Shown here piece after piece: positions 39,739 through 59,517 of a stretch of DNA of 64,000 nucleotides. The position numbers were made by a program, and so were the translations under genes. Position 1 is the first letter of the stretch, and the number at the start of each line of letters is the position of its first letter. The stretch lies in sequence record OR067838.1; one strand, written 5' to 3'. Source of the DNA: Escherichia phage KKP 3954. Below the pieces are notes generated by a model, which was given only the letters and a program-made list of their open reading frames with translations, was not told the origin of the DNA and did no database searches.

Positions 39739-40464
39739 ATGATCGAGAATTTTTTTAAAGATATTAAATTCGATACTGAATTTTTCAAAAATGCAGCAAA
39801 GCACGTGATTGACTGGAATGCCAAAGCACGAGGTGGTGAACAACCGGAATTCACTCAAGAGCTATTTATGTCCCAAATCGGGTTCGTTCGTGAAGAGCTT
39901 AAAGAGTATGAAACAGCCGCGAAAGTAAACGATCATGTAGAACTCTTGGATGCAGCAGCGGATATTTTTGTAGTATCAAGTTATCTGACTTACATGTTCT
40001 TTGGTGAAGAACATACGATGAATTTCTTGGACTATGCTGTAGGCGATGTTTTTACTCCAACTGTGTATACTGATTTTGATGCTTTGGAACAAACATTTAC
40101 AGAGCCAGTTCAAATGGCACTAATGGCTGCTGGTATTATGCGTATGTCTCGTGACACTCTAATCCGTTCAAAATATCCAGAAAAGAAAGTTATTAAAGAG
40201 GTATTGAAAAGTAATGATTCCAAGTATCCAACTAAACAACAGTTGCTGAAAACTTGGAAAACTTCAGATATCGATTCAGCCATTGCACAAGAATGCACTG
40301 CAATTGAAGAACGAAATGCCAATCGTCCAGAAGGAGCATACACTGGTGTTCATGCTGTTTATAATGAAAAACAGAAAGTGTATGTGTTCTTTGATGATAA
40401 AGGTAAGATCATGAAACCATCGACCTTTGTCAAACCTAATATTGCAGGTATTATTAATAAGTAA
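39739..40464 (+). CDS. MazG-like NTP pyrophosphohydrolase
   Basis: EELKEYETAAKVNDHVELLDAAADIFVV resembles the MazG EExxE...D motif. Confidence 0.35.
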   Translation: MIENFFKDIKFDTEFFKNAAKHVIDWNAKARGGEQPEFTQELFMSQIGFVREELKEYETAAKVNDHVELLDAAADIFVVSSYLTYMFFGEEHTMNFLDYAVGDVFTPTVYTDFDALEQTFTEPVQMALMAAGIMRMSRDTLIRSKYPEKKVIKEVLKSNDSKYPTKQQLLKTWKTSDIDSAIAQECTAIEERNANRPEGAYTGVHAVYNEKQKVYVFFDDKGKIMKPSTFVKPNIAGIINK

Positions 40465-40520
40465 TGTTGTAAGCCGCCCTTTATGGGCGGTAATGTGAGA
40501 TGTATTAAATAGGAGGAAAC

Positions 40521-41399
40521 ATGTTTGTAAAATCTTTTAAATCCGCTCTGCCTATGGTTGTTGGTGACAATGCTTCTGTAGCATCCCTTAACAGCATTAC
40601 AGATATTCCTCTGGAATTTGTAACAGCAGAAGGCTCCCAGTCACACACTATCGGTCTTGTTCGTTTCGAAGATGACTCTAAATTTGTAAAAGAGTTTTCA
40701 GATCTTGAACTGCTTAATGTAGGTCAATCTGTGAAGAAGGTAGATAAAAAGAAAGTTAAACGTATTCTGAATGAACGTCTAGAAGAAATGCGTCAGGACA
40801 TGGAGAGCGAAGGTAAAGAGTTTTATGTCGATAAAGAAGTAGTCAAAGCAATGAAGGAAGATATTGAATTTGCACTATTGCCTGAAACAGAACCTGAAGA
40901 TTTCTTTAACTATGTTGTCTTGGATAAAACTACGAATCTTCTTTATGTTCTTAATGGAAGTAAAAAGGTTGCAGAAGAGATTACTTCTTTCCTCCGTTCC
41001 GTTCTGGGGACTTTCCCTTCGGTAGGTTTTAGTGTGCACGAAGAAGCTATTGTAAAAGGTTTTGGTGAATTGCTGGAGAATCACGAAGCAGATCGTATTA
41101 CTCTCGGAAATTATATCAAAATGGAGGATAGCGAGGGCGTTGTTGTTTGGAGTAAAGAATCTCTATACGAGTCTAAAGCTGTCGAACTAAAAGAAGATGG
41201 TAAAGATGTGGTTGCAATTGGTCTTGAATATGACGGTGTTGTAGATTTTGTAGTGGATAAAGAGTTTAAACTTTCTAAACTACGTTTTCCGAAATATTTT
41301 GCAGACGAAGAAGGTAGTATTGAAGCTTCAGTTCTTCTGTGCTTCAATGAGATTCGAGGTCTGATGGAAGATTTAACCAAAGCAACAATCCTTAAATAA
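40521..41399 (+). CDS. RdgC-like recombination-associated protein
   Basis: LLYVLNGSKKVAEEITSFLRSVLGTFP parallels RdgC; about 300 aa, acidic. Confidence 0.4.
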   Translation: MFVKSFKSALPMVVGDNASVASLNSITDIPLEFVTAEGSQSHTIGLVRFEDDSKFVKEFSDLELLNVGQSVKKVDKKKVKRILNERLEEMRQDMESEGKEFYVDKEVVKAMKEDIEFALLPETEPEDFFNYVVLDKTTNLLYVLNGSKKVAEEITSFLRSVLGTFPSVGFSVHEEAIVKGFGELLENHEADRITLGNYIKMEDSEGVVVWSKESLYESKAVELKEDGKDVVAIGLEYDGVVDFVVDKEFKLSKLRFPKYFADEEGSIEASVLLCFNEIRGLMEDLTKATILK

Positions 41400-41403
41400 G
41401 TTC

Positions 41404-41432
41404 TTGACTTGCGGGATTAGTTATGATATTAT
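41404..41432 (+). promoter_or_regulatory. sigma70-like promoter
   Basis: TTGACT, 17-nt spacer, TATTAT. Confidence 0.45.
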
Positions 41433-41461
41433 GCCTACCTACTTAATGAGGTAGGCTTTTT
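41433..41461 (+). terminator. rho-independent terminator
   Basis: GCCTACCT/AGGTAGGC hairpin plus TTTTT. Confidence 0.45.
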
Positions 41462-41471
41462 AGGAGGCGTT

Positions 41472-41681
41472 ATGAAAAAGATTCTGACAGTCGTTCTTTT
41501 AGCTTTTAGTTTCACAGTAGCAGCAGGTCAAATTACTTTAATCTTGTCTGATTCTGAAGTTAATGGCAACACAAAATATTGCTACTATTCTAACGCTAAC
41601 CAAGATGAAGTTATAGCAATCCCGAAAAGTCGTCAATGTCCGTATACTAAAACATTCTCAACAGAGGATGACGATGAATAA
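41472..41681 (+). CDS. small secreted protein
   Basis: N-terminal signal-like MKKILTVVLLAFSFTVAAG. Confidence 0.3.
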   Translation: MKKILTVVLLAFSFTVAAGQITLILSDSEVNGNTKYCYYSNANQDEVIAIPKSRQCPYTKTFSTEDDDE

Positions 41682-42122
41682 TTAGGGGGAAATATTAGCG
41701 GTTATATTTTAATTAAACCTGAAGATCTTCATTTATATGTCAACGAAGAAACAATAGCTGCAATTGATTATGATCAGATCGCTTTCCAAGCAGCGTCTGC
41801 ATTAGAGAAAAGAACAATCATTGCGAAGCACATCCCTTCGGGTGCTCAAAAGGAATTTAAAAATAAGACAGAGTTTTGGGGTAAAAGCAAGACTAAAATT
41901 GGAGGTTGGCTAGGAGATACAAATGCAGAAAGAGCCTCCAAAAACAAACGTCCCTTCACAAAGGAAGAGTTCGAAATCATTGATAAGCAATACCCGCCAG
42001 AAGATATCGGACACACCTTCCAAGCAGCTAAAACAAAAGTCTTAGGTATTCTAAAACATCTACGTTTAGAAAAATATTGCGGAGTTATTGGCGTAGGAAA
42101 AACTTTCAGACACGCCTTCAAA

Positions 42123-42812
42123 ATGCCCGTAGAATATAAATCTGAACGGTTAGATATCAAACCACTTCAGCTTTCAGAAACCAAAGATTATCTTGTGGAA
42201 TTCCACAATGGTGATGTTGTTACTGTAATAGAGGCTGACGATGAGTTGGAGAAATATGGTTTCCAGGGTTATAAAGATTATAAAAGGACGGGTAAATTTT
42301 CTTATATCGTAGTGTCTATCGATAAAGATAGTTTACATACTCCTAGTATCCTTTTTAATTTCTACAAAGAAGATGGAGTCTTTAAAAACCCAGATATAAT
42401 TCTTATTGATGAATCTATTGGCGACATATGGATCGTAGATAAAGGTAAAAAGAAAGAAGTTAAAGGTTGGGGCAGTTACTGGTTAGCATATCAAATGCTA
42501 ATGGGAGATAAAACAGATAGTATCCGACCTTATCAAGATTTTGATATTAAGTTTGGAGATATTACTTGTTTTAATCTTCTTTCAGCTTGTAAAACTCAAG
42601 CAGAGCTTTTCCAAACAGTTAAAGATACTTACTACTCATGGTTCCCAGATGGTGTTAATTTTACTTCTTGGGATGGAGAAGAAGTCCATATGACAACAGA
42701 TGAATGGATAGAAACAATTTTCCAGTTGGTATACATGAAACGCTGGGATAATGACGATACAACATTTGAGAGTATGCTTCAGTCATACATCTCACAACAG
42801 GAGGCAGAGTGA
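42123..42812 (+). CDS. hypothetical protein; open frame extends upstream to 41682 without canonical start
   Basis: Same frame is stop-free for 377 codons from 41682; strong SD AGGGGGA at 41683-41689. Confidence 0.35.
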   Translation: MPVEYKSERLDIKPLQLSETKDYLVEFHNGDVVTVIEADDELEKYGFQGYKDYKRTGKFSYIVVSIDKDSLHTPSILFNFYKEDGVFKNPDIILIDESIGDIWIVDKGKKKEVKGWGSYWLAYQMLMGDKTDSIRPYQDFDIKFGDITCFNLLSACKTQAELFQTVKDTYYSWFPDGVNFTSWDGEEVHMTTDEWIETIFQLVYMKRWDNDDTTFESMLQSYISQQEAE

Positions 42813-43459
42813 GCAGATTAACAGAAGAGCAGAAAGCAGATATCCTTAGTATGAGTGCAGAGGGTATGTCTTCTCGCAATATTGCAGCAATTGTTTTAGG
42901 TAGTCCAACAAGAAAAAGCACAGTAAATGATTTCCTTGCACGTTTCGGTGCAAGTAAACAAGAGCCAGTTAAAAAGAAACAACCAGTTATTAAAATTATT
43001 GATGTTGAAACTGCACCAGAGATTGCATATACTTTCCGTCGATTCAAAGCCTTCATTTCTCCAGACCAGGTAATTCGTAGGGGTTATTTGTTATCTTACT
43101 CTTCTGCTGATTTGTATACAGGTGAAGTAGAAGGTAAGAACTTATCTTCTTATCCTCTTTTCGATATCGATCATACAGACGATTGGGAGCTTTGCCAAGA
43201 TCTTTGGAACCTTCTGAATGAGGCAGATGTAGTTGTGGCACACAACGGGTATAAGTTTGACCGTGCATACATTAACCAACGATTTGCATATCACGATATG
43301 GCTCCTCCTTCTAATTATGTAGTTGTTGATACATTGAAGGCAGCTAAGAAACAATTTGCACTTCCTTCCAACTCCCTTAAAGAAATGGGAGCATATTTCG
43401 AAACAGAAAGTGAAAAACTGGATAACGAGGGGTTCCCCTTTATGGAAAGCATGTTGTGA
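42809..43459 (+). CDS. DnaQ-like 3'-5' exonuclease, N-terminal part
   Basis: Exo I IDVETAP, Exo II AHNGYKFD; N-terminal HTH-like segment. Confidence 0.5.
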   Translation: MSRLTEEQKADILSMSAEGMSSRNIAAIVLGSPTRKSTVNDFLARFGASKQEPVKKKQPVIKIIDVETAPEIAYTFRRFKAFISPDQVIRRGYLLSYSSADLYTGEVEGKNLSSYPLFDIDHTDDWELCQDLWNLLNEADVVVAHNGYKFDRAYINQRFAYHDMAPPSNYVVVDTLKAAKKQFALPSNSLKEMGAYFETESEKLDNEGFPFMESML

Positions 43460-43769
43460 AGGTGATCGTGATGCTTTTGAACGTATGCAGATTTACAATG
43501 ATGGCGATGTTGTTTCACTCCGTGATTTGTATATGAAAATCCTTCCGTGGATTCCACAGCATCCTAACTTATCCGCTTATTACCCAGATGAGAAGGTCCG
43601 TTGTTCTCGTTGTGGCAGTGATCACGTTCACGTTGTTACTGGTAAACAATACCACACTGCGGTAAGTTCTTTCGATATCATTCGTTGTGAATCTTGCGGA
43701 GGTTTGTCACGTAGTAGAGCAAACACCAGATCCAAGGATAAACGAGCAGCAACTATCATCGGAATCTAA
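43356..43769 (+). CDS. DnaQ-like exonuclease, C-terminal part after frameshift
   Basis: Exo III YNDGD then Cys4 zinc ribbon; frames meet at GGGG/CCCC runs near 43420-43430. Confidence 0.45.
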   Translation: MHFLPTPLKKWEHISKQKVKNWITRGSPLWKACCEGDRDAFERMQIYNDGDVVSLRDLYMKILPWIPQHPNLSAYYPDEKVRCSRCGSDHVHVVTGKQYHTAVSSFDIIRCESCGGLSRSRANTRSKDKRAATIIGI

Positions 43770-43775
43770 TAATAA

Positions 43776-43798
43776 GGGAGCTTCTTGCTCCCTTTTTT
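43776..43798 (+). terminator. rho-independent terminator
   Basis: GGGAGC-TTCTT-GCTCCC plus TTTTTT. Confidence 0.6.
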
Positions 43799-43799
43799 A

Positions 43800-43828
43800 T
43801 TGACAAAAATTTGATATTAGTGTATACT
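43800..43828 (+). promoter_or_regulatory. consensus sigma70 promoter
   Basis: TTGACA, 17-nt spacer, TATACT. Confidence 0.55.
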
Positions 43829-43855
43829 CTGCTAACCACAATAAAAGGAGGAAAT

Positions 43856-44083
43856 ATGAGCATTACATTAACAGGTAACGAAATTTTCGAACTGTTTGAA
43901 ATGTTAGGTTTGAACTATACCATCGAGAAAGACCCAGATTTACTTGACGTTGAAATAACAATTCAAGAAGATACAGCAATCTACAATGACGATGGTGATG
44001 TTATCTATCAAGGTAGGGTAGCTTATTATACAGACTACCCAGAAGAAGGCGCAGTAGGAATTCAGGAGGAAAATTATGTCTAA
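43856..44083 (+). CDS. hypothetical protein
   Basis: ATG after GGAGGA RBS. Confidence 0.3.
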   Translation: MSITLTGNEIFELFEMLGLNYTIEKDPDLLDVEITIQEDTAIYNDDGDVIYQGRVAYYTDYPEEGAVGIQEENYV

Positions 44084-44471
44084 TGCTTTTGATAATCAGG
44101 TTGACGGTGATCACTACACAAAAATGGCAATGCAACCTATCGAATTAGCTTATTTGGTTGGTGGCACACCTTGTTTTTGCAAATTGGCAAAATACGCAAC
44201 ACGTATTAAAGGTGAGCGTCAGATTAACCTGGATAAAGCTATCCATTGTATTGAACTGGAAAGAACGCTCATGGAAAATAACACGTATATGGTTCGTGAA
44301 AATTATCCGTCTATGACTAGTGCAGCTAAACATGATCAAGCTATGCTTCTTATCGATTTCTTCACAAAAGATCCTTTAATCCGAGTAGCACTGAAACACA
44401 TGTATAACTCTTCTTATGTAGATGCAATCGAAGCTATTAAACAACTTAAGGAACGTATTAGTGGCGAGTAA
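44076..44471 (+). CDS. phage protein, DUF3310-like
   Basis: VDGDHY ... MQPIELAY ... AKYATRIKG pattern. Confidence 0.3.
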   Translation: MSNAFDNQVDGDHYTKMAMQPIELAYLVGGTPCFCKLAKYATRIKGERQINLDKAIHCIELERTLMENNTYMVRENYPSMTSAAKHDQAMLLIDFFTKDPLIRVALKHMYNSSYVDAIEAIKQLKERISGE

Positions 44472-44644
44472 TACTAAACAATATGGAGCAGGAGAAGTTT
44501 ATAAAATATTCAACCGCAAAGGTGATAAACTTTTACTAACTTTGACTATTCCAGAAACAATGTGCAAGGCGGGGTTAGACCGCCTTTTGTTTTTTAAACA
44601 TAATATCCCACCAGGGGAATATACAGCTAAAAAGGTGAGCAATA

Positions 44645-45220
44645 TTGGCAGGTGAACCAAAAATAATGTGGGGTGAAGGAACACCCTGGAAAACACAAGC
44701 TGAATTTTATACTTATCTTAGGGGATGTTTTAGAAAAGCATGGATGAGACACCCTAATAAAATTAAGGTTATCAATGCAAGGCGTTTTAAAGTTGATCGT
44801 GTAGATAAAGACGGCAATGTAATGATAGACAAGAAAACTGGAAAACCAAAACAAGTTTGGAATTGTGAGTGTGAAATATGTGGACATAGAGGAGGAATGA
44901 AAGACTTCCAAGTGGATCATATTCACGCAGCAAAACAACTTCAATGTTTTGATGATATTCCTCTTTTTGTTTTCCGTTTAATCTATGTGAAAGAAGAAGA
45001 TTTGCGCATGGTTTGTAAATTGTGCAACTCTATTCTTGCTTATGCAGACAAACAAGGTATATCTTTTGAAGAAGCGAAAGCTGAAAAAGAGGCGATAGCT
45101 TTGTGTAGAGCTAAGAAAGATAAAGCTTGGTTGAAGAAGCGTAAAATAGAACCTGAAAGCACAGTAGCAAAACGCCGTAAACAAATAGTCAAAATCCTAT
45201 TGCAGGAAATTGAAAGTTAG
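44645..45220 (+). CDS. HNH endonuclease
   Basis: CECEICGH, VDHIHA, CKLCN arrangement. Confidence 0.5.
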   Translation: MAGEPKIMWGEGTPWKTQAEFYTYLRGCFRKAWMRHPNKIKVINARRFKVDRVDKDGNVMIDKKTGKPKQVWNCECEICGHRGGMKDFQVDHIHAAKQLQCFDDIPLFVFRLIYVKEEDLRMVCKLCNSILAYADKQGISFEEAKAEKEAIALCRAKKDKAWLKKRKIEPESTVAKRRKQIVKILLQEIES

Positions 45221-45256
45221 TATAAGATAACTATACTAAAAGAGAGAGGAGGTTTT

Positions 45257-45865
45257 ATGCAGATAGTATGTGATTGGGATTTAGTTGTGGCTCCGTTAGA
45301 TGTTGCTTGGTTAGAATGGTTGAATAAGATTAGTGGCCTTGGTGTTAAAATCGACACATTCACAAAAAATGCAGATTATGATCTTACCAACTATTTTCCT
45401 GGTTTCAGGGAAGAGTTCAACATAGATCCTTACGGATTTCTGGATAATCCTCATCTCTACGATACAATGGGTTTTGTTCCAGGTATGCCAGATTTCTTAA
45501 AGTATGTTTCAAGGAAAGGTAGCAATCTTTTGATCGCGAGTGTGACAAAAGGTGGTCACTTAAGTTCTAAACATAAACATGTTTTAAGAACATTAGATAC
45601 GATTGATTTTAGCAAAGGATCTGGTAACGGCTTTTTTGCTACGAAAGAAAAATACTTATTACCTTGTGATATAGCAATAGATGACAGGGCTGATAACCTA
45701 TTATATTTTCCAGATGAAGTAGTTAAAATATATTTTAATACACCTTATAAAGATAACCATCTAGAAGAACTAAAGAAAAAACCAAATGTTGTGATCACAG
45801 GTTTAGAAGATCAGTGGCTAACATGTTTGGATGTTTTTAACACTTTGAACAATTTTAAAAACTAA
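45257..45865 (+). CDS. HAD-like hydrolase, possible 5'-deoxynucleotidase
   Basis: N-terminal CDWDLV and later IAIDDRADN; sits upstream of thyX-like. Confidence 0.3.
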   Translation: MQIVCDWDLVVAPLDVAWLEWLNKISGLGVKIDTFTKNADYDLTNYFPGFREEFNIDPYGFLDNPHLYDTMGFVPGMPDFLKYVSRKGSNLLIASVTKGGHLSSKHKHVLRTLDTIDFSKGSGNGFFATKEKYLLPCDIAIDDRADNLLYFPDEVVKIYFNTPYKDNHLEELKKKPNVVITGLEDQWLTCLDVFNTLNNFKN

Positions 45866-45875
45866 GGAGAAAAAA

Positions 45876-46289
45876 ATGACAAAACAGATTTCGGCTAGTA
45901 TTATTGCACATTCCATCACTGAAGACGGAAAAGAGATTGTAACTTTCGAACTTGAATATCCACGTATTATTCATTCAGAACTGATGACTCACCGCCTGTT
46001 CAGTCGTAACGCTGCTTCTAGCCGTGCTATACCTGTTAAAACACTGATCGAAATGGTGCGAAATCAGCCTGCTCGTCCTTATCGTTTTGGTGCTAACCAA
46101 CCTGGTATGCAGGACAAAGGTGTTGACCATGATGCTCTTATTGATGCAGGTTATACTGCTCAAGAGTGGTGGGATCTTGCCGCGCTTAGCGCAGCACGTT
46201 TTGCAGAAGAATTCTCTTTGGCAGGGAATACCACAAACAAGTTGCAAACCGTCTTCTGGAACCTTTCCAACGAATTAAAACAGTTCTGA
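45876..46289 (+). CDS. thyX: flavin-dependent thymidylate synthase ThyX-like, N-terminal part
   Basis: THRLFSRNAASSR fits ThyX (R)HR-x7-S-x-R with Thr for the first Arg. Confidence 0.5.
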   Translation: MTKQISASIIAHSITEDGKEIVTFELEYPRIIHSELMTHRLFSRNAASSRAIPVKTLIEMVRNQPARPYRFGANQPGMQDKGVDHDALIDAGYTAQEWWDLAALSAARFAEEFSLAGNTTNKLQTVFWNLSNELKQF

Positions 46290-46357
46290 CAGCAACAGAA
46301 TATGAAAATTTCTGGTGGCTACGTGATGACAAAGAAGCCGATCCTACTATCGAAGCT

Positions 46358-46876
46358 TTGGCTAAAGAGATGCACAAAGAGTATGAAGAATCTACACCAG
46401 AAGTGCTGAAACCAGGGCAATGGCACACACCTTATGTAGACCATTTCTATGATAATATTGGCACAGAAGGTGACGATCATTTTGTTTTTGGTGGATACTA
46501 CGTTCAAGATGAATCTGGAGAAGTTGTTGTGCTTACTTTGGAAGAAGCTAAAGCTATTTCAGCTTCGTGTTGTGCACAGGTTAGCTATCGTCGTTTGAAT
46601 GCAACTAAAGATAAAGCTTTAGATATTTATGGTCGTTTGCTAACTGGGCGCAAGGTTCATGCTTCTCCATTTGAACATCAAGCCACCCCAATGCAAGAAA
46701 CATGCGAACAATACGGAGAGAACTGTTTTGAAGATTTGTTTATCAATGCTCCTTGGGATTTTAACTCTTGGGAACCAGGTATTACCCATGTAGATCGTAA
46801 TGGTAAGTTTTGGTCTGGCAATTTCAAAGGTTGGATTCAACATCGTCAACTTTTAACAAATCATACTAAATGGTGA
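46358..46876 (+). CDS. thyX: ThyX-like, C-terminal part after frameshift
   Basis: Frame open from 46190; ANRLLEPF...TATEYENFWWLRDDKEADPTI matches ThyX NF-x-LR-xD block. Confidence 0.45.
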   Translation: MAKEMHKEYEESTPEVLKPGQWHTPYVDHFYDNIGTEGDDHFVFGGYYVQDESGEVVVLTLEEAKAISASCCAQVSYRRLNATKDKALDIYGRLLTGRKVHASPFEHQATPMQETCEQYGENCFEDLFINAPWDFNSWEPGITHVDRNGKFWSGNFKGWIQHRQLLTNHTKW

Positions 46877-46892
46877 TCTGTTTAAATAGTTA

Positions 46893-46920
46893 TTGACTTT
46901 AGTATTAGTTTTAGTATAAT
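46893..46920 (+). promoter_or_regulatory. sigma70-like promoter
   Basis: TTGACT, 16-nt spacer, TATAAT. Confidence 0.5.
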
Positions 46921-46941
46921 ATAGCACAATACTGGGAGGAG

Positions 46942-47385
46942 GTGAGTCCTCCCATTCAAAACGAAGGAGAAAATATGTCATTAGTAAATACTACAACTTG
47001 GGCTACCGTAAGCATGTCTACTGTAATGTCTACCCCTATCTGGAAACTAGAATCAAATAAACACAATGGCAATATCCCACACGAGAAACAAAATGCTGTT
47101 ATTAGAGCGTCGCTTGTAATGCTGGGTATGGCTGAAGATTCACACTATTCTGTTGAGCGTAATGTGAATATCCGAAGCAATAACGATAAGCGAGTAGTGT
47201 TTGCAAATACAACGCTTTTCACTTTCCCTGTTTCACCTAATTGTGGTTTTAAACGAATCTATCAAGAAAATGATATTTTTCATTTTGGTGATGAAGAATT
47301 TACAGGTTGGGGTGCGTCACATATTAAGATGGATGATTTCGGTAACTCTTATGATCCTGCGAAAGCAGATGATACTAATCAATGA
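46942..47385 (+). CDS. hypothetical protein
   Basis: 147-aa ORF with RBS AAGGAG. Confidence 0.3.
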   Translation: MSPPIQNEGENMSLVNTTTWATVSMSTVMSTPIWKLESNKHNGNIPHEKQNAVIRASLVMLGMAEDSHYSVERNVNIRSNNDKRVVFANTTLFTFPVSPNCGFKRIYQENDIFHFGDEEFTGWGASHIKMDDFGNSYDPAKADDTNQ

Positions 47386-47636
47386 GAGGGACAATGACTG
47401 ATAATAAATATGAAGGCTGTGAAATCGAAGTCTATTTTGATGAAACTGTTGGTTGTAATGTAACTGTAATTCTAGACACTTCAAAACGTTTATCTCCTAA
47501 AAGACAAGAAGCAGATCGTCGAGCAAAAGCAAAAGGGTTTGATGACATAACTCATTTTGAAGGTTTTCTATATGCTAATGGACTTTTTAATGAAATGAAG
47601 TTCGGTTATGATGTAGATGTTTTGAATATGCATTAA
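47382..47636 (+). CDS. hypothetical protein
   Basis: 84-aa ORF. Confidence 0.3.
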   Translation: MRGTMTDNKYEGCEIEVYFDETVGCNVTVILDTSKRLSPKRQEADRRAKAKGFDDITHFEGFLYANGLFNEMKFGYDVDVLNMH

Positions 47637-47652
47637 TAATAGGGAGGAGAAG

Positions 47653-49893
47653 TTGATTCGTTTTGTAACTAAATCTAATGGTAAGACAGAGGAGTTTAAC
47701 CCAGAAAAACTTCGCAAGTGGTCTGAATTTGCAGCAGGTAAACTAAACTGGTCTGAAATTGAATTAGAAGCTGTGAAGCGGTGTTATGACGGTGTGTCTA
47801 CACGTGATCTGCATAAAGCAATGATTGCAGCGTGTATTGACAAGAAAACACAAGCTTACAGTGATATGGCAGGAAGACTTCTTCTAGGTATGATTTACAA
47901 ACAGGCTCATGGGGGATACCACAGTATCCCTTCACTGAATACCTTTTATCATGATATGGTAGAACGTGGACACTGGGCTAAAATGGATTATACTGATGAA
48001 GAGATCAAAGAAATCGGTAAGATTGTAAAGCATAATAAAAATCTAACTTATGGTTATTCTGTTTTACGTCAGATGGTAGATAAATATCTTATTCGAGATG
48101 CAGTAAACGATGTGGTGCATGAGTCTCCACAGTTTCTTTTCATTGGTATCGCAATGAAGGTTATGGAGATCCAACCAAAAGAACGCCGTATAGAAGATAT
48201 TAAAAAACTTTATACTTATGTTAGCGATCTTAAGATTAATCTGCCATCGCCGTATCTGACAACTCTACGAACTCCAATCAAAGGAAGTGCGTCTTGTTGT
48301 TTATTCCGTGCAGATGATACGGCAGAGTCTTTAGCCATTGCTAATTACTTAGCTCATGAGTATACATTGAATAACGCAGGTATTGGTGTTAATCTTCAAA
48401 CTCGTGCCACAGGTCAAGGTGTTAAGAATAATCGTATTATTCACGGTGGTCTTCTTCCGTATCTGAAATGGATGGAAGATAGTGTTGGAGCTTCAAAGCA
48501 AGCAAGCCGTGGAGGTAGTGCTACAGTTACCTTTACCATACTTGAACCAGACTTCGACGATCTGATTCGACTGAAGAATCCAACAACACCTATAGATAAA
48601 CGAGTGGATAAACTAGATTATTCTATTGTTGTTAACCGTTCGTTCTTGCGTCGAGCAGCAAAAAACGAAGACTGGATGTTAGTTAGTTGTGATGATGCTC
48701 CTGAACTTTATGAAGCTTTATATAAAAGTGAAGAAGAGTTTGATGCAGTTTATGACAAAGTAAGTCGTCGTCGCATTAAGAAAAAATTTGTTAAGGCTCG
48801 TGATCTTCTGACAGAGATTATTGTTCAACGTGCAGAAACAGGACGTATTTACATGTTCTTTGCTGACAACGTTAACAACCATACACCTTTCTTGGATACG
48901 GTGTATCAATCAAACCTGTGTCAAGAGATCTTCTTGCCAACTAAAGCTTTCCACAGTATGCCGGATCTCTTTACTGGTGAGAATACAGAAGATCAAGAAT
49001 TGGCTTTATGCTTCTTATCTTCTATTGTTGCTGGTCGTGTATTACCTGAAGAATATGAGGATGTTGCATACTACACTGTATTGACAATTGACAACGTTAT
49101 TGAAACAATGGATTATCCATTTAAACATAACGAAATAACTGCTAAAGCACGTAGATCTATTGGTGTAGGTATTACAAACTTAGCGCATTACTTGGCAAGT
49201 AATTTTGTAAATTATTCAGATGCTTATGCTAAAAAATTAATGCATGAACTTGCAGAACGTCATTACTTTTGGTTGGCAAAAGCCTCTCTGCGTCTGGCTA
49301 AGGAAAAAGGTAATGCGGAATGGATCGATAAGACAAAATGGCCTCAAGGTTGGCTACCAATTGACACCTATGCTAAAACAGTAGATAGTATCGGTAATTT
49401 TGATCTTAAAATGGACTGGGAAGGCTTACGTGCTGAAATCATTGAACAAGGTGGTATCCGTAACAGTGTATTGGCTGCTATTGCACCTAATGAGTCCAGC
49501 AGTTTGGTAAGCAATACTACTAACTCTCTGTATCCTGTTCGTGATACCATTATGTATAAACAAAGTCAGAAAGGTAGTGTATTATTTATTGTTCCAGACT
49601 ACGAAAAACTGAAAATGTTCTACCAATCTGCCTGGGATACTCCGGCTAAAGACCTTGCAGAAATGTATGGTATCTTTACCAAGTTTACTGACCAAGGAAT
49701 TTCTTGTGATTCTTGGCTAGATTATTCTAAATTGGTAGGTGGACGTTTATCCGTGAAAGCTGAGATGCAGTTTATTTTGAATTTTGCTAGACTGGGTGGC
49801 AAATCATTGTATTACCTTAATAGTAGAACAAAATCAGCAGACTCTTTAGCACAAGAAGATTCTGATGGTGGTTGTGAAGCTTGCAAGATGTGA
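47653..49893 (+). CDS. nrdA: ribonucleoside-diphosphate reductase alpha subunit
   Basis: 746 aa, N-terminal ATP-cone, class I RNR large-subunit length and C-terminal Cys pair. Confidence 0.9.
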   Translation: MIRFVTKSNGKTEEFNPEKLRKWSEFAAGKLNWSEIELEAVKRCYDGVSTRDLHKAMIAACIDKKTQAYSDMAGRLLLGMIYKQAHGGYHSIPSLNTFYHDMVERGHWAKMDYTDEEIKEIGKIVKHNKNLTYGYSVLRQMVDKYLIRDAVNDVVHESPQFLFIGIAMKVMEIQPKERRIEDIKKLYTYVSDLKINLPSPYLTTLRTPIKGSASCCLFRADDTAESLAIANYLAHEYTLNNAGIGVNLQTRATGQGVKNNRIIHGGLLPYLKWMEDSVGASKQASRGGSATVTFTILEPDFDDLIRLKNPTTPIDKRVDKLDYSIVVNRSFLRRAAKNEDWMLVSCDDAPELYEALYKSEEEFDAVYDKVSRRRIKKKFVKARDLLTEIIVQRAETGRIYMFFADNVNNHTPFLDTVYQSNLCQEIFLPTKAFHSMPDLFTGENTEDQELALCFLSSIVAGRVLPEEYEDVAYYTVLTIDNVIETMDYPFKHNEITAKARRSIGVGITNLAHYLASNFVNYSDAYAKKLMHELAERHYFWLAKASLRLAKEKGNAEWIDKTKWPQGWLPIDTYAKTVDSIGNFDLKMDWEGLRAEIIEQGGIRNSVLAAIAPNESSSLVSNTTNSLYPVRDTIMYKQSQKGSVLFIVPDYEKLKMFYQSAWDTPAKDLAEMYGIFTKFTDQGISCDSWLDYSKLVGGRLSVKAEMQFILNFARLGGKSLYYLNSRTKSADSLAQEDSDGGCEACKM

Positions 49894-49900
49894 TGAAACT

Positions 49901-49922
49901 AGGGGCTTCGGCCCCTTTTTAT
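49901..49922 (+). terminator. rho-independent terminator
   Basis: AGGGGC-TTCG-GCCCCT plus TTTTT. Confidence 0.6.
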
Positions 49923-49937
49923 TGAGGAGAATTTTAA

Positions 49938-51026
49938 ATGGCAGCAATTAATTTACACAATGAAGTTTACAAAACAGGAAAATATCCAGTATTTTTAGGG
50001 GAACAATTAGGGATCTTTGATTCTGTTAACGTAACTTATCCAGAGATGCACAAACTCTACAAACTTCAAAAAGCACAAGATTGGGATGAGAATGAAGTCA
50101 ATCTGGATCAGACACGTAAAGATTTCGTAGCTTGTTCTAAAAACAACTATGATGTTATGATTAAAAACTTATCGTTCCAATGGGAAAATGATTCTCTTGC
50201 AAAATCAATCATCACTTTGTTCTCTCCATTCTTGAGTAACAATGAAGCCTGTGCTATGATGATGAAGCAGAGTGAAATGGAAGTTCTCCATGCGTTAACG
50301 TATTCTGAAATAATCCGTCAATGTACTCCAGATCCAATCGAAGTCATCAATCAGATTATGATTAATGATAAAATTTTCAATCGTATGGGTATCATTGCTG
50401 ATATCATGGGTCAGTTGGAAGAAGCTGGTCATAAGTATGCTCTAGGATTGATTGAAGCTAACGATGAACTTCGACTGCTGATTCTTAAAGGGATGGTAGC
50501 CCTGATTGGATTAGAAGGTATTCAGTTTATATCTTCCTTCTCTGCTACTTTTGCTATGGCAGAACAACAACTGTTTGTTGGGGCTTGTAAACTGATCCAG
50601 AAAATTATGCTAGATGAAATCTTGCATGTTAAGATGGATTATGCTGTAATTGATGCATTGATGCATGACCCAATTTGGCGTAAAATTTACGAAGACAATA
50701 TTGAAGAGTTGACTTTGATCCTCGACACTGTTGTTGAACAAGAGGAACAGTGGTGTGACTACCTGTTTAGTGAAGGTCGTTTTATTGTAGGTCTTAACGC
50801 CGAATTGTCTAAACAGTGGGTTTATTTCAATGCTGCTCCTATTTATCGTCGATTGAAAATGAAAGCCAAGTTTAAAGCACCTAAACATAGCCCTTTAGCT
50901 TGGATGGAAAAATGGTTGAATCCTGATTTGATTCAGTCAGCAGCCCAAGAGATTCAGTTAACTAACTACAAATTGAATTCAGCTAACAAAGATCTCTCTG
51001 ATGATGAGGAGCTTGACTTCGAATGA
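49938..51026 (+). CDS. nrdB: ribonucleoside-diphosphate reductase beta subunit
   Basis: 362 aa directly after nrdA, diiron/tyrosyl-radical subunit architecture. Confidence 0.85.
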   Translation: MAAINLHNEVYKTGKYPVFLGEQLGIFDSVNVTYPEMHKLYKLQKAQDWDENEVNLDQTRKDFVACSKNNYDVMIKNLSFQWENDSLAKSIITLFSPFLSNNEACAMMMKQSEMEVLHALTYSEIIRQCTPDPIEVINQIMINDKIFNRMGIIADIMGQLEEAGHKYALGLIEANDELRLLILKGMVALIGLEGIQFISSFSATFAMAEQQLFVGACKLIQKIMLDEILHVKMDYAVIDALMHDPIWRKIYEDNIEELTLILDTVVEQEEQWCDYLFSEGRFIVGLNAELSKQWVYFNAAPIYRRLKMKAKFKAPKHSPLAWMEKWLNPDLIQSAAQEIQLTNYKLNSANKDLSDDEELDFE

Positions 51027-51232
51027 TTTTGAAATGTGTTGGTATAATCGACACATTCAAAGACGTTTTTGATAAAGGGGCTTCTTATGAAGCCTCTGAA
51101 ATGAAGAATGGTTTTTGTGATGTATTCGGTAAACGCCTGAAGAAAAACGGCGATCCTTGGCTAGGAGTTATGTCTTGTGGTCATATTATTGTAAATGGTG
51201 TTGCCAAATTTGAAATAATTAAGGAGGAATAG
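51023..51232 (+). CDS. hypothetical protein
   Basis: 69-aa ORF. Confidence 0.3.
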   Translation: MILKCVGIIDTFKDVFDKGASYEASEMKNGFCDVFGKRLKKNGDPWLGVMSCGHIIVNGVAKFEIIKEE

Positions 51233-51384
51233 TGGCTGAAAAACTTATTTTTTGTCCTGTGTGCGGTGGGACGGGACAGATGGAAGTGGAAATTATGGTA
51301 ACATTTCCTTGCCTGAATTGTCATGGTGAGGGACGAGTAGTAGTCTTTGAAAAAGAAGGGTTGGAGGTAGAAGATGGAGAGTGA
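51232..51384 (+). CDS. zinc-ribbon small protein
   Basis: GTG start after AAGGAGG; CPVCGG and CLNCHG; below track cutoff. Confidence 0.3.
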   Translation: MAEKLIFCPVCGGTGQMEVEIMVTFPCLNCHGEGRVVVFEKEGLEVEDGE

Positions 51385-51527
51385 AAAAGAGTATGTCCGC
51401 ATTCCACGAGAATTAACAGATCACATTGCAGAAGCAATAGCTTTCGAAGCTAGATGTTGTGGAGGTATTGCTTACGATATTTATGAAGCAATTATTAAAG
51501 CTGCTCAAGAAGAGGAGGAGATGAATA

Positions 51528-51854
51528 ATGGGTATTGATATCGAATGGCGTATGTTACAGGGTGCACCATATGATAAATGGAAAGAAATATTTGGAGACG
51601 ACCCACAAGTTGAAGACCAGTTCGATGGGGACTTTAATTGGTTTCTCTGCGAAGGTTTGGGCTTGGAAAACATTTCCCCGTGGTACGATGCAGATCCTGA
51701 AGATTGTGTCTTCGGTGTCAAGCTGTGTAGCGGTTGTGGTGCTTGTGCCATAGACCTCACAAGCTTAAATAAAAAAGCAAATGAGATCTATTTTGAACTA
51801 CTTAATAAGTATAATATTGAAACTGAAACATTAGTGTCACAAAACGTCTGGTAA
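51528..51854 (+). CDS. hypothetical protein
   Basis: 108 aa with CSGCGAC motif. Confidence 0.3.
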   Translation: MGIDIEWRMLQGAPYDKWKEIFGDDPQVEDQFDGDFNWFLCEGLGLENISPWYDADPEDCVFGVKLCSGCGACAIDLTSLNKKANEIYFELLNKYNIETETLVSQNVW

Positions 51855-51863
51855 GGAGAACTG

Positions 51864-52349
51864 ATGCGCTATCTGGTAACAGGTGGTCTTGGTTTTATTG
51901 GGAGCGCCGTGGTGCGCTCTCTTTGTCAAGATCCTAATAACGAAGTTTTTATCATTGATAAAATGGGTTATGCAGCAGACATTGAGAATGTAGGTGATAT
52001 CACTCACGCTAAACTAAGCATGACAGATTTGGCAAACGAAGCCCAGGTCAAAAGTTTAGTAGTAGAGTGCAATCCCGATTTCATCATTCACTTAGCGGCA
52101 GAGAGCCATGTGGATAATTCTATCAAGAATCCACGAGCTTTCATCGACTCCAATATTATTGGTACATACAATTTATTGGAAGCTGCAAGGCTCCTCCCAA
52201 AGAATAAACTGAAGATGTTCATACACGTCTCCACAGACGAAGTGTATACGGTGATATGGCAGACTCTGGCGTTCCCTTTACCGAAGAGACAGCTTATGCC
52301 CCTTCAAGCCCGTACAGTGCGTCTAAGGCAGCATCTGACCATCTTGTGA
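51864..52349 (+). CDS. rmlB: dTDP-glucose 4,6-dehydratase, N-terminal fragment
   Basis: Rossmann GGLGFIGS; reads through HVSTDEVY then leaves frame. Confidence 0.75.
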   Translation: MRYLVTGGLGFIGSAVVRSLCQDPNNEVFIIDKMGYAADIENVGDITHAKLSMTDLANEAQVKSLVVECNPDFIIHLAAESHVDNSIKNPRAFIDSNIIGTYNLLEAARLLPKNKLKMFIHVSTDEVYTVIWQTLAFPLPKRQLMPLQARTVRLRQHLTIL

Positions 52350-52858
52350 AAGCTTGGCACCGTACCTACGATTTACCTGTTGTGATAACCAACTGCTCCA
52401 ATAACTTTGGACCCTATCAACATCCAGAAAAGCTGATCCCAAAAATCATCACAAGTATCTTGACGAATAAAGAGATTCCGGTGTATGGTAAAGGCGATCA
52501 GGTGCGAGACTGGCTTTTTGTTGAGGATCATGCGCGAGCTATTCTTCAAGTGGCAACAGGTGGAGAACCAGGTAAAACGTATAATGTGGGAACACGTAAT
52601 CCCAAAACCAATATGGAGATCATCTATATGGTTTGTGACTACATGGATGCTGTACATCCAGAAGCAGGAACCTACCCTTCTTCCAACTTGATAACTTTTG
52701 TTGAAGATCGTAAAGGGCATGACTTGCGTTATGAAATCAATCCTTCTAAGATAGAGTTTGAACTGGGTTGGAGTGCAAACTCTACATTTGAACAAGATCT
52801 CTACTCAACGATTGAATGGTACTTAAACAACCCTCAATGGTGGAGTGGGAAGATTTAA
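52256..52858 (+). CDS. rmlB: dTDP-glucose 4,6-dehydratase, C-terminal fragment
   Basis: Continues VYGDMADSG...[13 protein letters not shown] (YxxxK) in shifted frame. Confidence 0.75.
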
Positions 52859-52866
52859 GGAGGGCT

Positions 52867-53745
52867 ATGAAAGGTATTATTTTGGCGGGAGGAAGTGGAA
52901 CCCGCCTTCATCCGGTAACACGCAGTGTGAGCAAGCAATTGCTCCCTGTGTATGACAAACCCATGATCTACTACCCTTTATCGGTATTGATGTTGGCTGA
53001 CATTAAGGATATCTTAATCATTACCACACCAGGCGATCAGGAAGACTTTGAGTATCTTCTCGGAGATGGGTCTATGTTTGGGATAAAACTCACTTACGCA
53101 ATCCAATCCGAGCCACGAGGTCTTGCGGACGCTTTCATCATCGGTAAAGATTTTATCGGAGAAGACTCTGTTGCTCTTATTTTAGGTGACAACCTATTCT
53201 TCGGACAAAGCTTTGGTAAACTACTGATTAACGCCAGTGAGATGGTAGATGTTTGTGGCGGAGCTTGTATCTTCGGGTATTTGGTGAAAGATCCTGAACG
53301 ATTCGGTGTGGTTGAATTTGGGAGTAATCGTCAAGCTATTTCTATTGAAGAGAAACCTGAAAATCCTAAATCAGATTATGCTGTCACAGGTTTGTATTTC
53401 TATGATAACTCTGTTGTTCAACGTGCATTAGAAGTAACCCCTTCCGCGCGTGGAGAACTGGAGATCACAGATATCAATCGCAGCTACCTCGAAGACAGGA
53501 AGTTACAAGTGGAAGTTCTCGGACGAGGATTTACTTGGCTTGACACAGGAACACACGCCAGTCTGATGGAAGCTGGTCAATTCGTGCAGACTATTGAGAA
53601 CCGTCAAGGATTGAAGATTGCGTGCCTGGAAGAAATTGCTTTCAAAAAAGGGTGGATTTCTTTAGAGACTTTGTTGTATCATGGAAACTCACTGAAGAAA
53701 ACAGAATACGGGCAATACCTACTCAAATTAGCGGAGAGAAAATGA
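52867..53745 (+). CDS. rmlA: glucose-1-phosphate thymidylyltransferase
   Basis: [32 protein letters not shown], near-identical blocks to enterobacterial RfbA. Confidence 0.9.
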
Positions 53746-54308
53746 AAGTAGAAAAAACAAAAATTGAAGGTGCGGTAATTATCAAACCAGACGTTTATAA
53801 AGATGATCGTGGTTTCTTTTTAGAAACATATAATGAACAAAAATACGAAGATATCATTGGTAGACAAACTTTCGTTCAAGATAACATGTCTAAATCAAAC
53901 TTCGGTGTTTTGCGAGGAATGCACTTTCAAACAAATAATCCGCAAGGTAAGCTTGTTCGTTGTGTAAGTGGGGAAGTATTGGATTTCGCTGTAGACCTAC
54001 GTAAAGATAGTCCTACTTACGGTGCTTGGGACGGTGTTGTTCTTCGTGCACGACACCATACACAGTTCTGGCTTCCACCTGGTTTGGCACATGGTTTTAT
54101 AGTGCTGAGTATGGATGCTATCTTCGAATACAAATGCACAACTCCATACGACCCTTCCAGCGAACAAAGTTTACGTTGGGATGATCCTGATATAGGGATT
54201 GATTGGGGCTTCGATATGATTTTTGACGAAGATTTTAAACCTATCTTATCAACAAAAGATGCAATGGCTAAGTCTTTTCAACAGCTACGTAGCGAGGGTG
54301 TATGCTAA
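53742..54308 (+). CDS. rmlC: dTDP-4-dehydrorhamnose 3,5-epimerase
   Basis: ATG overlaps rmlA stop; RGMHFQ cupin motif. Confidence 0.8.
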
Positions 54309-55144
54309 CATATCTGGTATTGGGTGGTAATGGACAACTGGGACAAGCTTTACGTAAAGTGGCTCCTTCAAATGTGTCTTTAATTTATCCTAAAGAACGT
54401 GTAGATATTACAAATTTTGAAGCTGTGCGAAACGCTATTGTTGAAGATTATGTAGATGGTGTTATTAATTGCGCTGCTTATACGGCTGTAGATAAAGCAG
54501 AACATGATTTTGCTACTGCTTTGGCTGTTAATGCCTATGGCCCTGCAAATACTGCGGCAGTGTGCAGCAAACTTAAAATTGATTTTGTGCATATTTCTAC
54601 AGACTATATTTTTAATTATTCTCATCCTATTTTTGAAGATACTACACCTAACCCAATAAACAATTATGGGTATACGAAAGAACTTGGTGAAAAAATGGTG
54701 CGAGGAGTTAACCCAAATGCATATATTATTCGAACAGCCTCGGTATATAGCGAATTTGGAAATAACTTTCTAAAAACCATGTTGTCTCGCTATAATGATG
54801 GACAACGTGATTTTATTATTGTTGCTGATCAGTTCTCTTGTCCAACATATGCCCCAGATTTAGCAGAAGCTATTTTTGAAGTATTAAAAACAGGTTGGTC
54901 AAGATCTGTAAAGACTTACCATTTTGCAGGAAGCCATCTTATTTCTTGGGCGGAGTTTGCGGAAAAGATCTTGACACAGATGCCAGAACCTGTTAAGATA
55001 TCGGCGGTATCAGCTTCAACCTATAATGCTCCAGCAGCACGTCCGGTGAAGTCACAATTAGTAACCAGTCACTATCTTACAAAATCAGATTTAAATAAAG
55101 GTATTGAACGGTCTTTAGCAGTATTACTTAATAAGGAGAGGTAA
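54302..55144 (+). CDS. rmlD: dTDP-4-dehydrorhamnose reductase
   Basis: 280 aa, N-terminal GGNGQLG Rossmann motif, operon position. Confidence 0.75.
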   Translation: MLTYLVLGGNGQLGQALRKVAPSNVSLIYPKERVDITNFEAVRNAIVEDYVDGVINCAAYTAVDKAEHDFATALAVNAYGPANTAAVCSKLKIDFVHISTDYIFNYSHPIFEDTTPNPINNYGYTKELGEKMVRGVNPNAYIIRTASVYSEFGNNFLKTMLSRYNDGQRDFIIVADQFSCPTYAPDLAEAIFEVLKTGWSRSVKTYHFAGSHLISWAEFAEKILTQMPEPVKISAVSASTYNAPAARPVKSQLVTSHYLTKSDLNKGIERSLAVLLNKER

Positions 55145-55404
55145 TGGAATTTGTAATTTTTGGTAAACCTAACTGTCAATTTTGCGAAATGTCAAAACAA
55201 CTATTAACCATGCGCAATAAACAGTTTGAATATTTAAGTCTTGACCAAGACTACGATTTAGAATCAATGACTAAAACAGTTGTTGATCTTACCGGAGTTC
55301 CTCCACGCACATTTCCACAAATTCTGTCTGAAGTGAACGGGGAGGTAACATACGTAGGCGGTTTTACCGAACTGCGTGATCTCATGGCTCAAATTGCGGA
55401 GTAA
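55144..55404 (+). CDS. glutaredoxin-like protein (NrdH/NrdC type)
   Basis: 86 aa with CQFC active site. Confidence 0.7.
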   Translation: MEFVIFGKPNCQFCEMSKQLLTMRNKQFEYLSLDQDYDLESMTKTVVDLTGVPPRTFPQILSEVNGEVTYVGGFTELRDLMAQIAE

Positions 55405-55409
55405 CAATT

Positions 55410-55559
55410 ATGAAAAGTAAACAGAAACGTAAGATCTTTTCTCGTGCTTTGGCAAATGAGCTGAAGTCCAACATAAAGAAAACGAAACCAAAACGTGAAA
55501 CTTCTCCAGAACACCTGTTGTTTAACGAGTTGGATCACGGAGTAGGAGACGACGAATAG
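55410..55559 (+). CDS. small basic protein
   Basis: 49-aa Lys/Arg-rich ORF, below track cutoff. Confidence 0.2.
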   Translation: MKSKQKRKIFSRALANELKSNIKKTKPKRETSPEHLLFNELDHGVGDDE

Positions 55560-55566
55560 GAAGTAA

Positions 55567-56067
55567 ATGGCTAAAGTAGTAGATGAGTTTGATATGCTAC
55601 GAGTCGATGAAGGACTGAAGCTTACTGTTTATCAAGACCATCTTGGTTATTGGACAGTCGGCATAGGACACCTTCTGACTAAAATAAAAGATAAAGCAAA
55701 GGCTATTCAAATCTTAGATAATCTCCTTGGTCGTAAGACCAATGGAGTTATCACAGAAAAAGAAGCCCGTCAAATCTTTGCTGACGATGTTGCAAAAGTG
55801 AAGAGAGACATAAAAAACAGTGCTATCTTATCACCAATCTATGATAAGGTGAGTGATACTCGTAAATTGGGAATAATCAACATGGTTTTCCAGTTGGGGT
55901 TAAAAGGTGCTGAAGGGTTTCAAAATAGCTTGACTTTAATCAGCAATGCATATTATACTCAAGCAGGTAAAAACATGCGTAAAAGCCGATGGTATAGCCA
56001 GACGCCAAACCGTGCTGAACGAGTAATTAAAGTTCTGACTTCTGGAACTTTAGATGCTTACAACTAA
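55567..56067 (+). CDS. endolysin, T4 lysozyme (gpe) family
   Basis: DEGLKLTVYQDHLGYWTVGIGHLL matches T4 lysozyme catalytic region. Confidence 0.85.
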   Translation: MAKVVDEFDMLRVDEGLKLTVYQDHLGYWTVGIGHLLTKIKDKAKAIQILDNLLGRKTNGVITEKEARQIFADDVAKVKRDIKNSAILSPIYDKVSDTRKLGIINMVFQLGLKGAEGFQNSLTLISNAYYTQAGKNMRKSRWYSQTPNRAERVIKVLTSGTLDAYN

Positions 56068-56104
56068 TAAAGGGGCTTCGGCCCCTTCTAAAAGGAGTGC
56101 TACT

Positions 56105-56863: not shown

Positions 56864-56898
56864 TAACGTGGCAGGGAAGCCATTTATAAGGAGGATTG

Positions 56899-58091: not shown

Positions 58092-58096
58092 CAAAC

Positions 58097-58118
58097 TGCC
58101 CCTTCGGGGGCATTTCTT
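58097..58118 (+). terminator. rho-independent terminator
   Basis: TGCCCC-TTCG-GGGGCA plus TTTCTT. Confidence 0.5.
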
Positions 58119-58218
58119 AAACATAGGAGATTAATAATGTTACAAGTTCCTGCTAAGTTTGTTGAAGGCGCTATCCACTCTTACCGTCAAACATGTAAGA
58201 GGGCAAGAAACTGTTTAG

Positions 58219-59065: not shown

Positions 59066-59077
59066 GGAGTGTGAACT

Positions 59078-59314: not shown

Positions 59315-59517
59315 TGGCTTACAATTATTACTGCATTTATGCACATGAAAAGAAGAAAGGTGACACTGGGACTAACGTTTATGCGGAGTCTGAATCTCAT
59401 GCAAAAGAGATTGGTGCTATCCTTTTATCACGCTGGACTGGAAATAATTACAGTGCAGAAGATATGTTTGCAGAAGTGGATTCTAGTATCCAAGAAGGCA
59501 ACATAACAACTACGTGA
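59314..59517 (+). CDS. hypothetical protein
   Basis: 67-aa ORF. Confidence 0.3.
   Translation: MAYNYYCIYAHEKKKGDTGTNVYAESESHAKEIGAILLSRWTGNNYSAEDMFAEVDSSIQEGNITTT

Follow-up and report, generated by a model that had tools for sequence, protein, structure and literature searches.

The 64,000-nucleotide (nt) stretch of Escherichia phage KKP 3954 analysed here (sequence record OR067838.1; this whole stretch is called the window below) carries, at 45876..46876 on the plus strand, a gene of the ThyX family, that is, one for a flavin-dependent thymidylate-synthase-like protein. It opens with an ATG at 45876, preceded by AAGGAG, and closes with a TGA at 46874-46876. As present in the window, the gene is found as two open reading frames (ORFs). 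The first one (45876..46289, plus strand) encodes 137 amino acids (aa), of which aa 1-117 are authentic and the final 20 aa are an out-of-frame tail. A second frame (-1/+2), open from about 46190 to 46876, holds the rest of the protein, aa 118-332 (46229..46876, plus strand; matched by tblastn at 46229-46873, in a frame other than that of aa 1-117). What breaks the frame is a 2-nt insertion, AA, at 46227..46228 of the plus strand (GCAGGG[AA]TACCAC; the window letters across it, 46224-46232, are GGGAATACC), which also destroys a GTAC/GGTACC site. Alignment with three relatives revealed this insertion as the sole difference causing the shift, and once nt 46227-46228 are taken out, the gene encodes 332 aa.

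The window belongs to Phapecoctavirus (phAPEC8-like phages, Stephanstirmvirinae) and is about 98% identical to known phages. Megablast searches with the locus, and also with 40000-60000, returned Phapecoctavirus genomes at 95-99% identity, none of them identical, with vB_EcoM-Ro121c4YLVW (98.6%) as the top match. In 64 close relatives the locus holds an intact ORF of 999 nt and 332 aa, versus 1001 nt in the window, and this ORF is named ‘putative thymidylate synthase’, ‘FAD-dependent thymidylate synthase’ (FAD, flavin adenine dinucleotide) or ‘ThyX’. A 76-nt query laid across the insertion site detected the AA in none of 64 related phage records; all of the matches showed 97.3% identity, which equals the 2-nt gap, and none reached 100%. 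No record of the truncated 137-aa product was found in the public gene index. In the case of Escherichia phage vB_EcoM-ECP26, the same thymidylate-synthase gene is annotated as two fragments (BFVD entries A0A4Y5TVX3, 245 aa, and A0A4Y5TVY4, 97 aa), and thus split calls of this gene do occur in another phage record.

Protein searches were performed with the repaired protein and with its 99%-identical database twin, P0001. An earlier interpretation of this locus, made from its letters alone (the sequence-only reading), had called the gene ThyX-like, and Pfam, PHROG and Foldseek all agree with that assignment. The Pfam Thy1 profile (PF02511) scored 35 bits against a cut-off of 24.8 (E=1.6e-8), with aa 22-175 covering only positions 59-191 of the 191 in the profile, and PHROG 85, ‘thymidylate synthase’, matched with E=1.6e-108. 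A single-sequence phmmer search against PDB gave no ThyX match, and a family profile was required; for this we used alignment A2, composed of 122 diverse members with 37-75% identity to the query. The AlphaFold2 model built on A2 reached a predicted local distance difference test score (pLDDT) of 94.6 and a predicted template modelling score (pTM) of 0.92. When it was compared with PDB by Foldseek, the top 50 matches were all ThyX, with probability 1.0 and TMt values of 0.45-0.54 over about 155-217 columns, and the structure matches in BFVD were phage ‘thymidylate synthase’ entries. The family itself proved extensive, with 6908 matches among the candidates scored in 90% clusters and, at 50% identity, 5002 clusters at E<=0.001 and 1637 at E<=1e-30; its named members are nearly all phages. 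The predicted product is thus a member of a very large, divergent, phage-borne ThyX (Thy1) clade.

We next describe how the residues of this protein map onto Thermotoga maritima (Tm) ThyX, whose sequence, verified against PDB 1kq4, gives the numbering used below; all residue counts refer to 122 clade representatives. The sequence-only reading had pointed to THR-x7-S-x-R in the N-terminal part of the protein, with threonine in place of the first arginine of the ThyX motif. This motif is indeed present at aa 38-50 (nt 45987..46025, plus strand), in the context M37-T38-H39-R40-LFSRNAA-S48-S49-R50, and corresponds to Tm R78-H79-R80...S88-G89-R90. The PDB profile search and hhalign agree in placing T38, H39 and R40 on Tm R78, H79 and R80, and S48 and R50 on S88 and R90; in this alignment to ThyX structures the motif assignment is not offset, and the threonine does stand at the first arginine. 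In terms of the ThyX signature RHR-x7-S(-x-R), the first arginine is replaced by threonine while the remaining positions are present. Further downstream (46295..46330, plus strand) lies T140, the counterpart of Tm R165, followed by N144-F-x2-L148-R149-x-D, the counterpart of Tm N169...L173-R174. The ThyX-like block that had been reported from the shifted frame was found there as N144-F-W-W-L148-R149-D-D151 (nt 46307-46330), but its spacing is NF-x2-LR-xD, the same as in Tm NFLNLRAD, one x having been dropped in the NF-x-LR-xD proposed before.

Conservation across the clade is high at the positions shared with Tm ThyX, namely H39 (Tm H79, 121/122), R40 (Tm R80, 99/122, plus 7 K), S43 (Tm S83, 110/122), N45 (Tm N85, 117/122), S48 (Tm S88, 120/122), R50 (Tm R90, 121/122), R125 (Tm R147, 121/122), N144 (Tm N169, 121/122), L148 (Tm L173, 120/122) and R149 (Tm R174, 122/122), as well as at H261 (Tm H53, 122/122), S263 (Tm T55, 120/122), E266 (Tm E58, 117/122) and H267 (Tm H59, 121/122). 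The positions that differ from Tm ThyX are uniform too. Tm R78 is replaced by T38 in 117 of the 122 representatives (2 have R and 2 have K), Tm R165 by T140 in 119 of 122, and Tm N163 by T (90 of 122) or S (30 of 122) at position 138, while the position of the ‘lid’ tyrosine, Tm Y91, is lost, with A51 standing there in 121 of 122. All the close relatives that we examined have Thr38. In the few members where R or K occupies position 38, the other key positions are unchanged, so this position tolerates T, R and K.

In characterised enzymes, the RHR motif forms hydrogen bonds with the phosphates and the ribityl chain of FAD, its first arginine also contacts the isoalloxazine and is among the residues stabilising deoxyuridine monophosphate (dUMP), and Arg190 of the Mycobacterium tuberculosis (Mtb) enzyme (Arg165 of the Helicobacter pylori one) is a further FAD phosphate/ribityl ligand (PMC6514825). 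Judging from its spacing from R174 (Mtb R199), Mtb Arg190 corresponds to Tm R165. The previous suggestion that the first arginine contacts the dUMP phosphate is therefore imprecise, as this residue hydrogen-bonds the flavin ring and is one of several that stabilise dUMP, but it is not named as the ligand of the dUMP phosphate (PMC6514825). As far as the residue map can tell, the clade has swapped both FAD-anchoring arginines for threonine and has retained the putative dUMP-binding and uracil-activating set (Tm S88, R90, R147 and R174). Candidates for residues that reach the flavin phosphates instead are K120, R238 and R323, each of them conserved to at least 93%. By the same comparison, Thr38 is a clade trait and not a mutation, and resequencing would not be expected to restore RHR.

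The order of modules along the protein is rearranged as well. The A2 profile matched Tm ThyX with E=1.6e-6 in three out-of-order pieces: 217-261 on Tm 19-61, 27-56 on Tm 61-90, and 139-178 on Tm 160-199. Likewise, with the native order hhalign produced separate matches, one of aa 21-174 to Tm 61-199 (E 2.8e-5) and one of aa 226-268 to Tm 20-60 (E 6.7e-4). After aa 215-268 had been placed in silico before aa 20-175, these merged into one colinear match spanning Tm 20-199 (E 3.4e-9, probability 96%). The relocated helical module, aa 226-268 (46553..46681, plus strand), ends with H261-A-S263-P-F-E266-H267 and equals Tm 20-60, including H53-E-T55-P-F-E58-H59. In canonical ThyX the order is beta1, then alpha1-alpha2 with HxS/TxxEH, then beta2 with RHR, and here the HxSPFEH module comes after the core. 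The protein thus has a ThyX fold whose alpha1-alpha2/HxS/TxxEH module, the carrier of a flavin/folate-site motif, no longer stands near the N-terminus, between beta1 and beta2, but in a C-terminal extension. We found no description in the literature of a permuted or THR-type phage ThyX, including threonine for arginine at both FAD contacts, the shifted place of the helical module and the equivalog failure given below.

The same motifs are where inteins have settled in this family. Members of 520-680 aa were considered as informative domain fusions, and this idea was rejected, as their extra length comes from inteins that contain HNH or LAGLIDADG endonucleases (P0128, P0136, P0144, P0155, P0170, P0200, P0221, P0254, P0265 and others). 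The insertion sites are after aa 33, about 42-53, 149-152 and 262, i.e. adjoining the THR, SSR and LR motifs and inside H-A|S-P-F-E-H. Inteins usually insert where important enzymes have their conserved active-site regions, and their insertion at the THR, SSR, LR and HASPFEH motifs thus suggests that these motifs are functionally important.

The frame break in the ThyX-like gene is not the only one in the window. We assessed frame integrity by tblastn with the proteins of a 98%-identical relative and compared the whole window with it for small insertions and deletions (indels). At least seven further conserved genes were split between frames: those of a 958-aa tail protein (6391-9266), which has a GTAC-internal 2-nt insertion, a 624-aa protein at the tape-measure position (13369-15241; 1-nt indel), the 457-aa tail sheath (16704-18072; 1-nt indel), a head decoration protein (21701-22098), again with a GTAC-internal 2-nt insertion, a DNA polymerase exonuclease subunit (42851-43766), an RmlB-like dehydratase (51864-52855) and a 144-aa protein (58137-58569). 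The capsid, terminase and ligase genes were unbroken. The 1-nt indels of the window are located in homopolymer runs. Because a viable phage could not have all those genes broken, the assembly carries indel errors, of which the shift in the thyX frame is most simply one; hence, as judged from these comparisons, the break is most likely not part of the biology of the ThyX-like gene.

The 2-nt insertions share a motif. Compared with the 98%-identical relative, the window has G[TA]TAC insertions at 7299, 22004 and 52245, the G[AA]TAC insertion at 46227 in the ThyX-like gene, and 1-nt events touching GTAC at 12424 and 17748. No other 4-bp palindrome is nearly as depleted in the genus as GTAC, with 30 sites in the window versus 168+/-13 in dinucleotide-preserving shuffles and a ratio of observed to expected sites of 0.16 for the window versus 0.34 for phage ukendt. 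GGCC, CCGG and CTAG are depleted too (0.4-0.55). As many as 30 of the 53 aligned GTAC sites of the relative are altered in the window, mostly by G>A at the first or C>T at the fourth position; part of the GTAC differences is common to the window and a second relative and represents natural polymorphism. Between 29.4 and 64 kb, 11 GTAC sites kept by both relatives are absent from the window, which has no private sites there. Natural purging would be expected to leave mostly synonymous changes, and in a test of this we counted 8 synonymous to 7 non-synonymous substitutions at GTAC, against 710 to 152 elsewhere, which would fit strong selection as well as error. At 31985-32175, apparently between genes, GTAC sites are clustered in relatives (GTACGTAC, GTACAGTAC), and all of them are converted in the window by G>A or C>T.

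On one hand, this pattern fits a motif-linked technical artefact, e.g. base-calling at a modified site. On the other hand, it fits lineage-specific purging of GTAC with errors on top. Under either explanation, insertions that break the frames of structural genes cannot be functional. Relatives encode several annotated DNA methyltransferases, which bear on the question of GTAC, including a putative N6-adenine methyltransferase adjoining the DNA polymerase; in phage ukendt, such genes are annotated at L006 30550-31059 and 37477-38160, and at L008 4312-4791 and 45449-46243. Restriction systems targeting GTAC, HpyAXII and the R.PabI-family restriction glycosylases, are known (PMC2588503, PMC5388411), and nothing specific was found in the literature on GTAC methylation in Phapecoctavirus. 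The GTAC-linked indels point to some systematic fault of the assembly or to a signal of DNA modification in it, with at least four genes affected.

The ThyX-like gene is part of a nucleotide-metabolism module, in the order NT5C-like nucleotidase, ThyX-like gene, two small unknown ORFs, NrdA and NrdB. Directly upstream lies the gene for a 202-aa NT5C-like (HAD-family) 5'-deoxynucleotidase (45257..45865, plus strand; PF06941, 26.1 bits vs a cut-off of 24.8; PHROG 420, function unknown), which is called ‘hypothetical’ in relatives and is itself preceded by an HNH endonuclease. A phosphatase of deoxynucleoside monophosphates adjoining a thymidylate synthase could regulate pyrimidine pools. The large subunit of a class I ribonucleotide reductase, NrdA, is encoded at 47653..49893 of the plus strand (Pfam Ribonuc_red_lgC, E=2.9e-97; so annotated in relatives). 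NrdAB is followed by a deoxythymidine diphosphate (dTDP)-rhamnose-type operon at about 51864-55144 of the plus strand (RmlB, RmlA, RmlC and RmlD homologues according to the annotation of relatives) and then by a glutaredoxin gene; putative dTDP glycosylation machinery has been described for phi92-like phages of the wider group (the BASEL paper). Elsewhere, the minus strand holds a cluster of 10 tRNA genes at 29054-30977 (Met x2, Ile, Pro, Gln, Gly, Thr, Asn, Ser and Arg), and small compensating indels relative to a relative occur within its tRNA-Pro gene (29303-29325). In the genome of the relative NC_052661.1, in 146.6 of 151 kb, we detected by annotated name no other thymidylate synthase and no dCMP deaminase, dUTPase or dihydrofolate reductase. 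The ThyX-like gene would thus be the single thymidylate-synthase-type gene of the phage.

Taken together, we consider it probable that the locus encodes a ThyX-type enzyme typical of its phage clade, which would make deoxythymidine monophosphate (dTMP) with the use of flavin and methylenetetrahydrofolate (CH2-H4folate), and that the frame break in the window is an assembly error. From the homology, the fold, the residue map, the clade-wide threonine and the gene context, we infer a cofactor, a substrate and a product of the ThyX kind. In this scenario, reduced flavin would relay the methylene group of CH2-H4folate to C5 of dUMP, and the C5 methylene would then be reduced to give dTMP for phage DNA synthesis, with the flavin probably anchored in a way unlike that in canonical ThyX. 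Several observations weigh against such an explanation. We found no assay of any clade member in the literature; the protein fails the NCBIfam thyX equivalog TIGR02170, with 31.1 bits vs a cut-off of 87.9; and with two FAD-contacting arginines replaced and the Tyr91 ‘lid’ lost, the cofactor or the kinetics could differ. As to the frame break, all four 2-nt insertions of the window (4/4) fall within GTAC, which takes up about 0.3% of positions, and by our own arithmetic the probability of this happening by chance is about 4e-11. The insertions are non-random, and the process behind them need not be random sequencing error. It is conceivable, if rather doubtful, that the THR-type phage proteins constitute a distinct structural class of ThyX, with the flavin anchored differently (for example as flavin mononucleotide, FMN, or as a loosely bound or exchangeable flavin) or with a shifted substrate or product. 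A neofunctionalised ThyX-like enzyme, with another flavin or cofactor arrangement, or with another nucleotide as substrate or another C5 product, which would supply a modified pyrimidine or some pathway outside DNA, seems to us unlikely. Phages that replace a canonical nucleotide are known to carry NT5C-like deoxynucleotidases, and here one lies directly upstream. The exchange of both the first RHR arginine and the R165 equivalent for threonine throughout the clade, the lost Y91 position, the rearranged topology and the score under the equivalog cut-off would all agree with a new function, for which there is also a precedent in PolB, a ThyX paralogue of altered specificity that methylates both uridine monophosphate (UMP) and dUMP (PMC5954106). 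Nevertheless, S48, R50, R125 and R149, which would bind dUMP and activate the uracil, are all conserved, position 38 tolerates T, R or K, and the gene is the sole one of its type annotated in the genome of the relative. Moreover, Vequintavirinae and relatives with the same enzyme clade are reported to be exceptionally susceptible to restriction-modification (RM) systems (PMC8594841); the enzyme of an rV5-like phage (P0050) is 72% identical to that of the window, and rV5-like phages are among those reported as RM-sensitive. This reported sensitivity argues against a bulk replacement of thymidine or a bulk modified pyrimidine. We thus found no support for the hint of the sequence-only reading at a modified pyrimidine, nor for the view that the threonine marks an unusual enzyme of altered specificity in this particular phage; the threonine is a trait of the clade and of all close relatives examined, and the dUMP residues are conserved.

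The 2-nt insertion might also be real, so that the gene would be a genuine pseudogene, ThyX function would be lost and the phage would rely on the ThyA of its host. E. coli does have its own ThyA, and the phage gene may therefore be dispensable in the laboratory. It also speaks for this possibility that the AA insertion is not a homopolymer slip and that it removes a GTAC in a genus where GTAC is the most depleted 4-bp palindrome, so that its loss could be selected. Still, we regard a pseudogene as quite improbable. Similar GTAC insertions break the genes of the 958-aa tail protein and of the head decoration protein, and the tail sheath and tape-measure-region genes are interrupted by 1-nt indels; since a viable phage cannot carry all these breaks, a sequence error is favoured. 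Besides, the truncated product has no second sighting, and apart from the break the protein is 99-100% identical to those of intact relatives, with no further decay. Alternatively, both frames could be joined by a programmed -1 ribosomal frameshift, as they overlap at 46190-46289 and a -1 shift in this overlap would restore the full-length protein. We rejected this candidate, which is effectively refuted: the gene is a single frame without the two extra bases in 64 of 64 relatives, and no X XXY YYZ slippery heptamer is present at the junction (GCAGGGAATACC).

For the window, this means that we have here the thymidylate-synthase-type gene that is standard in the genus, and that its frame break should best be handled as a sequence error and corrected before annotation. 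The gene itself is not new, as GenBank has listed it as ‘putative thymidylate synthase’ ever since phAPEC8; it is the clade that is a variant relative to characterised ThyX, and its label ‘FAD-dependent thymidylate synthase’ rests purely on homology. ThyX serves both as a target for antibacterial drugs and as a model for the mechanism of flavin-mediated methylene transfer. A huge phage clade that lacks two conserved FAD-site arginines and has a re-wired topology may be regarded as a natural experiment on which contacts are needed. If the THR-type proteins did form a class of their own, the clade, which numbers over 1,600 clusters (50% identity, E<=1e-30) and has inteins at its motifs, would not be simply equivalent to canonical ThyX.

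Among known systems, the closest ones are phAPEC8 AFU62686.1 and its orthologues in Phapecoctavirus, Vequintavirus rV5, Seunavirus PVP-SE1 and others (PHROG 85), which have the same THR motif; the phAPEC8-type orthologues, at 97-99% nucleotide identity to the gene of the window, also have the same neighbours, with the NT5C-like gene upstream and NrdAB downstream, but they are intact 332-aa ORFs, whereas the copy in the window is split by the 2-nt insertion. ThyX of T. maritima (TM0449; PDB 1kq4, 1o26) has the same fold as the window protein (Foldseek probability 1.0). However, the two share only about 18% identity, the window protein has another module order and a C-terminal extension of about 150 aa, and Tm R78, R165, N163, Y91 and H178 correspond in the clade to T38, T140, T/S, a lost position (A51) and D/A/E, respectively. 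The PBCV-1 ThyX (PDB 2cfa, 4fzb) is viral as well and was matched by both the family profile (E 0.007-0.011) and Foldseek, but it has the canonical motif and module order and is far less similar than members of the phage clade are to one another. Finally, PolB of Streptomyces, a ThyX paralogue of polyoxin biosynthesis which methylates UMP and dUMP (PMC5954106), provides a precedent for a substrate shift; it is likened here by function and not by sequence, and it acts in bacterial secondary metabolism, in contrast to the phage replication module in which the ThyX-like gene of the window resides.

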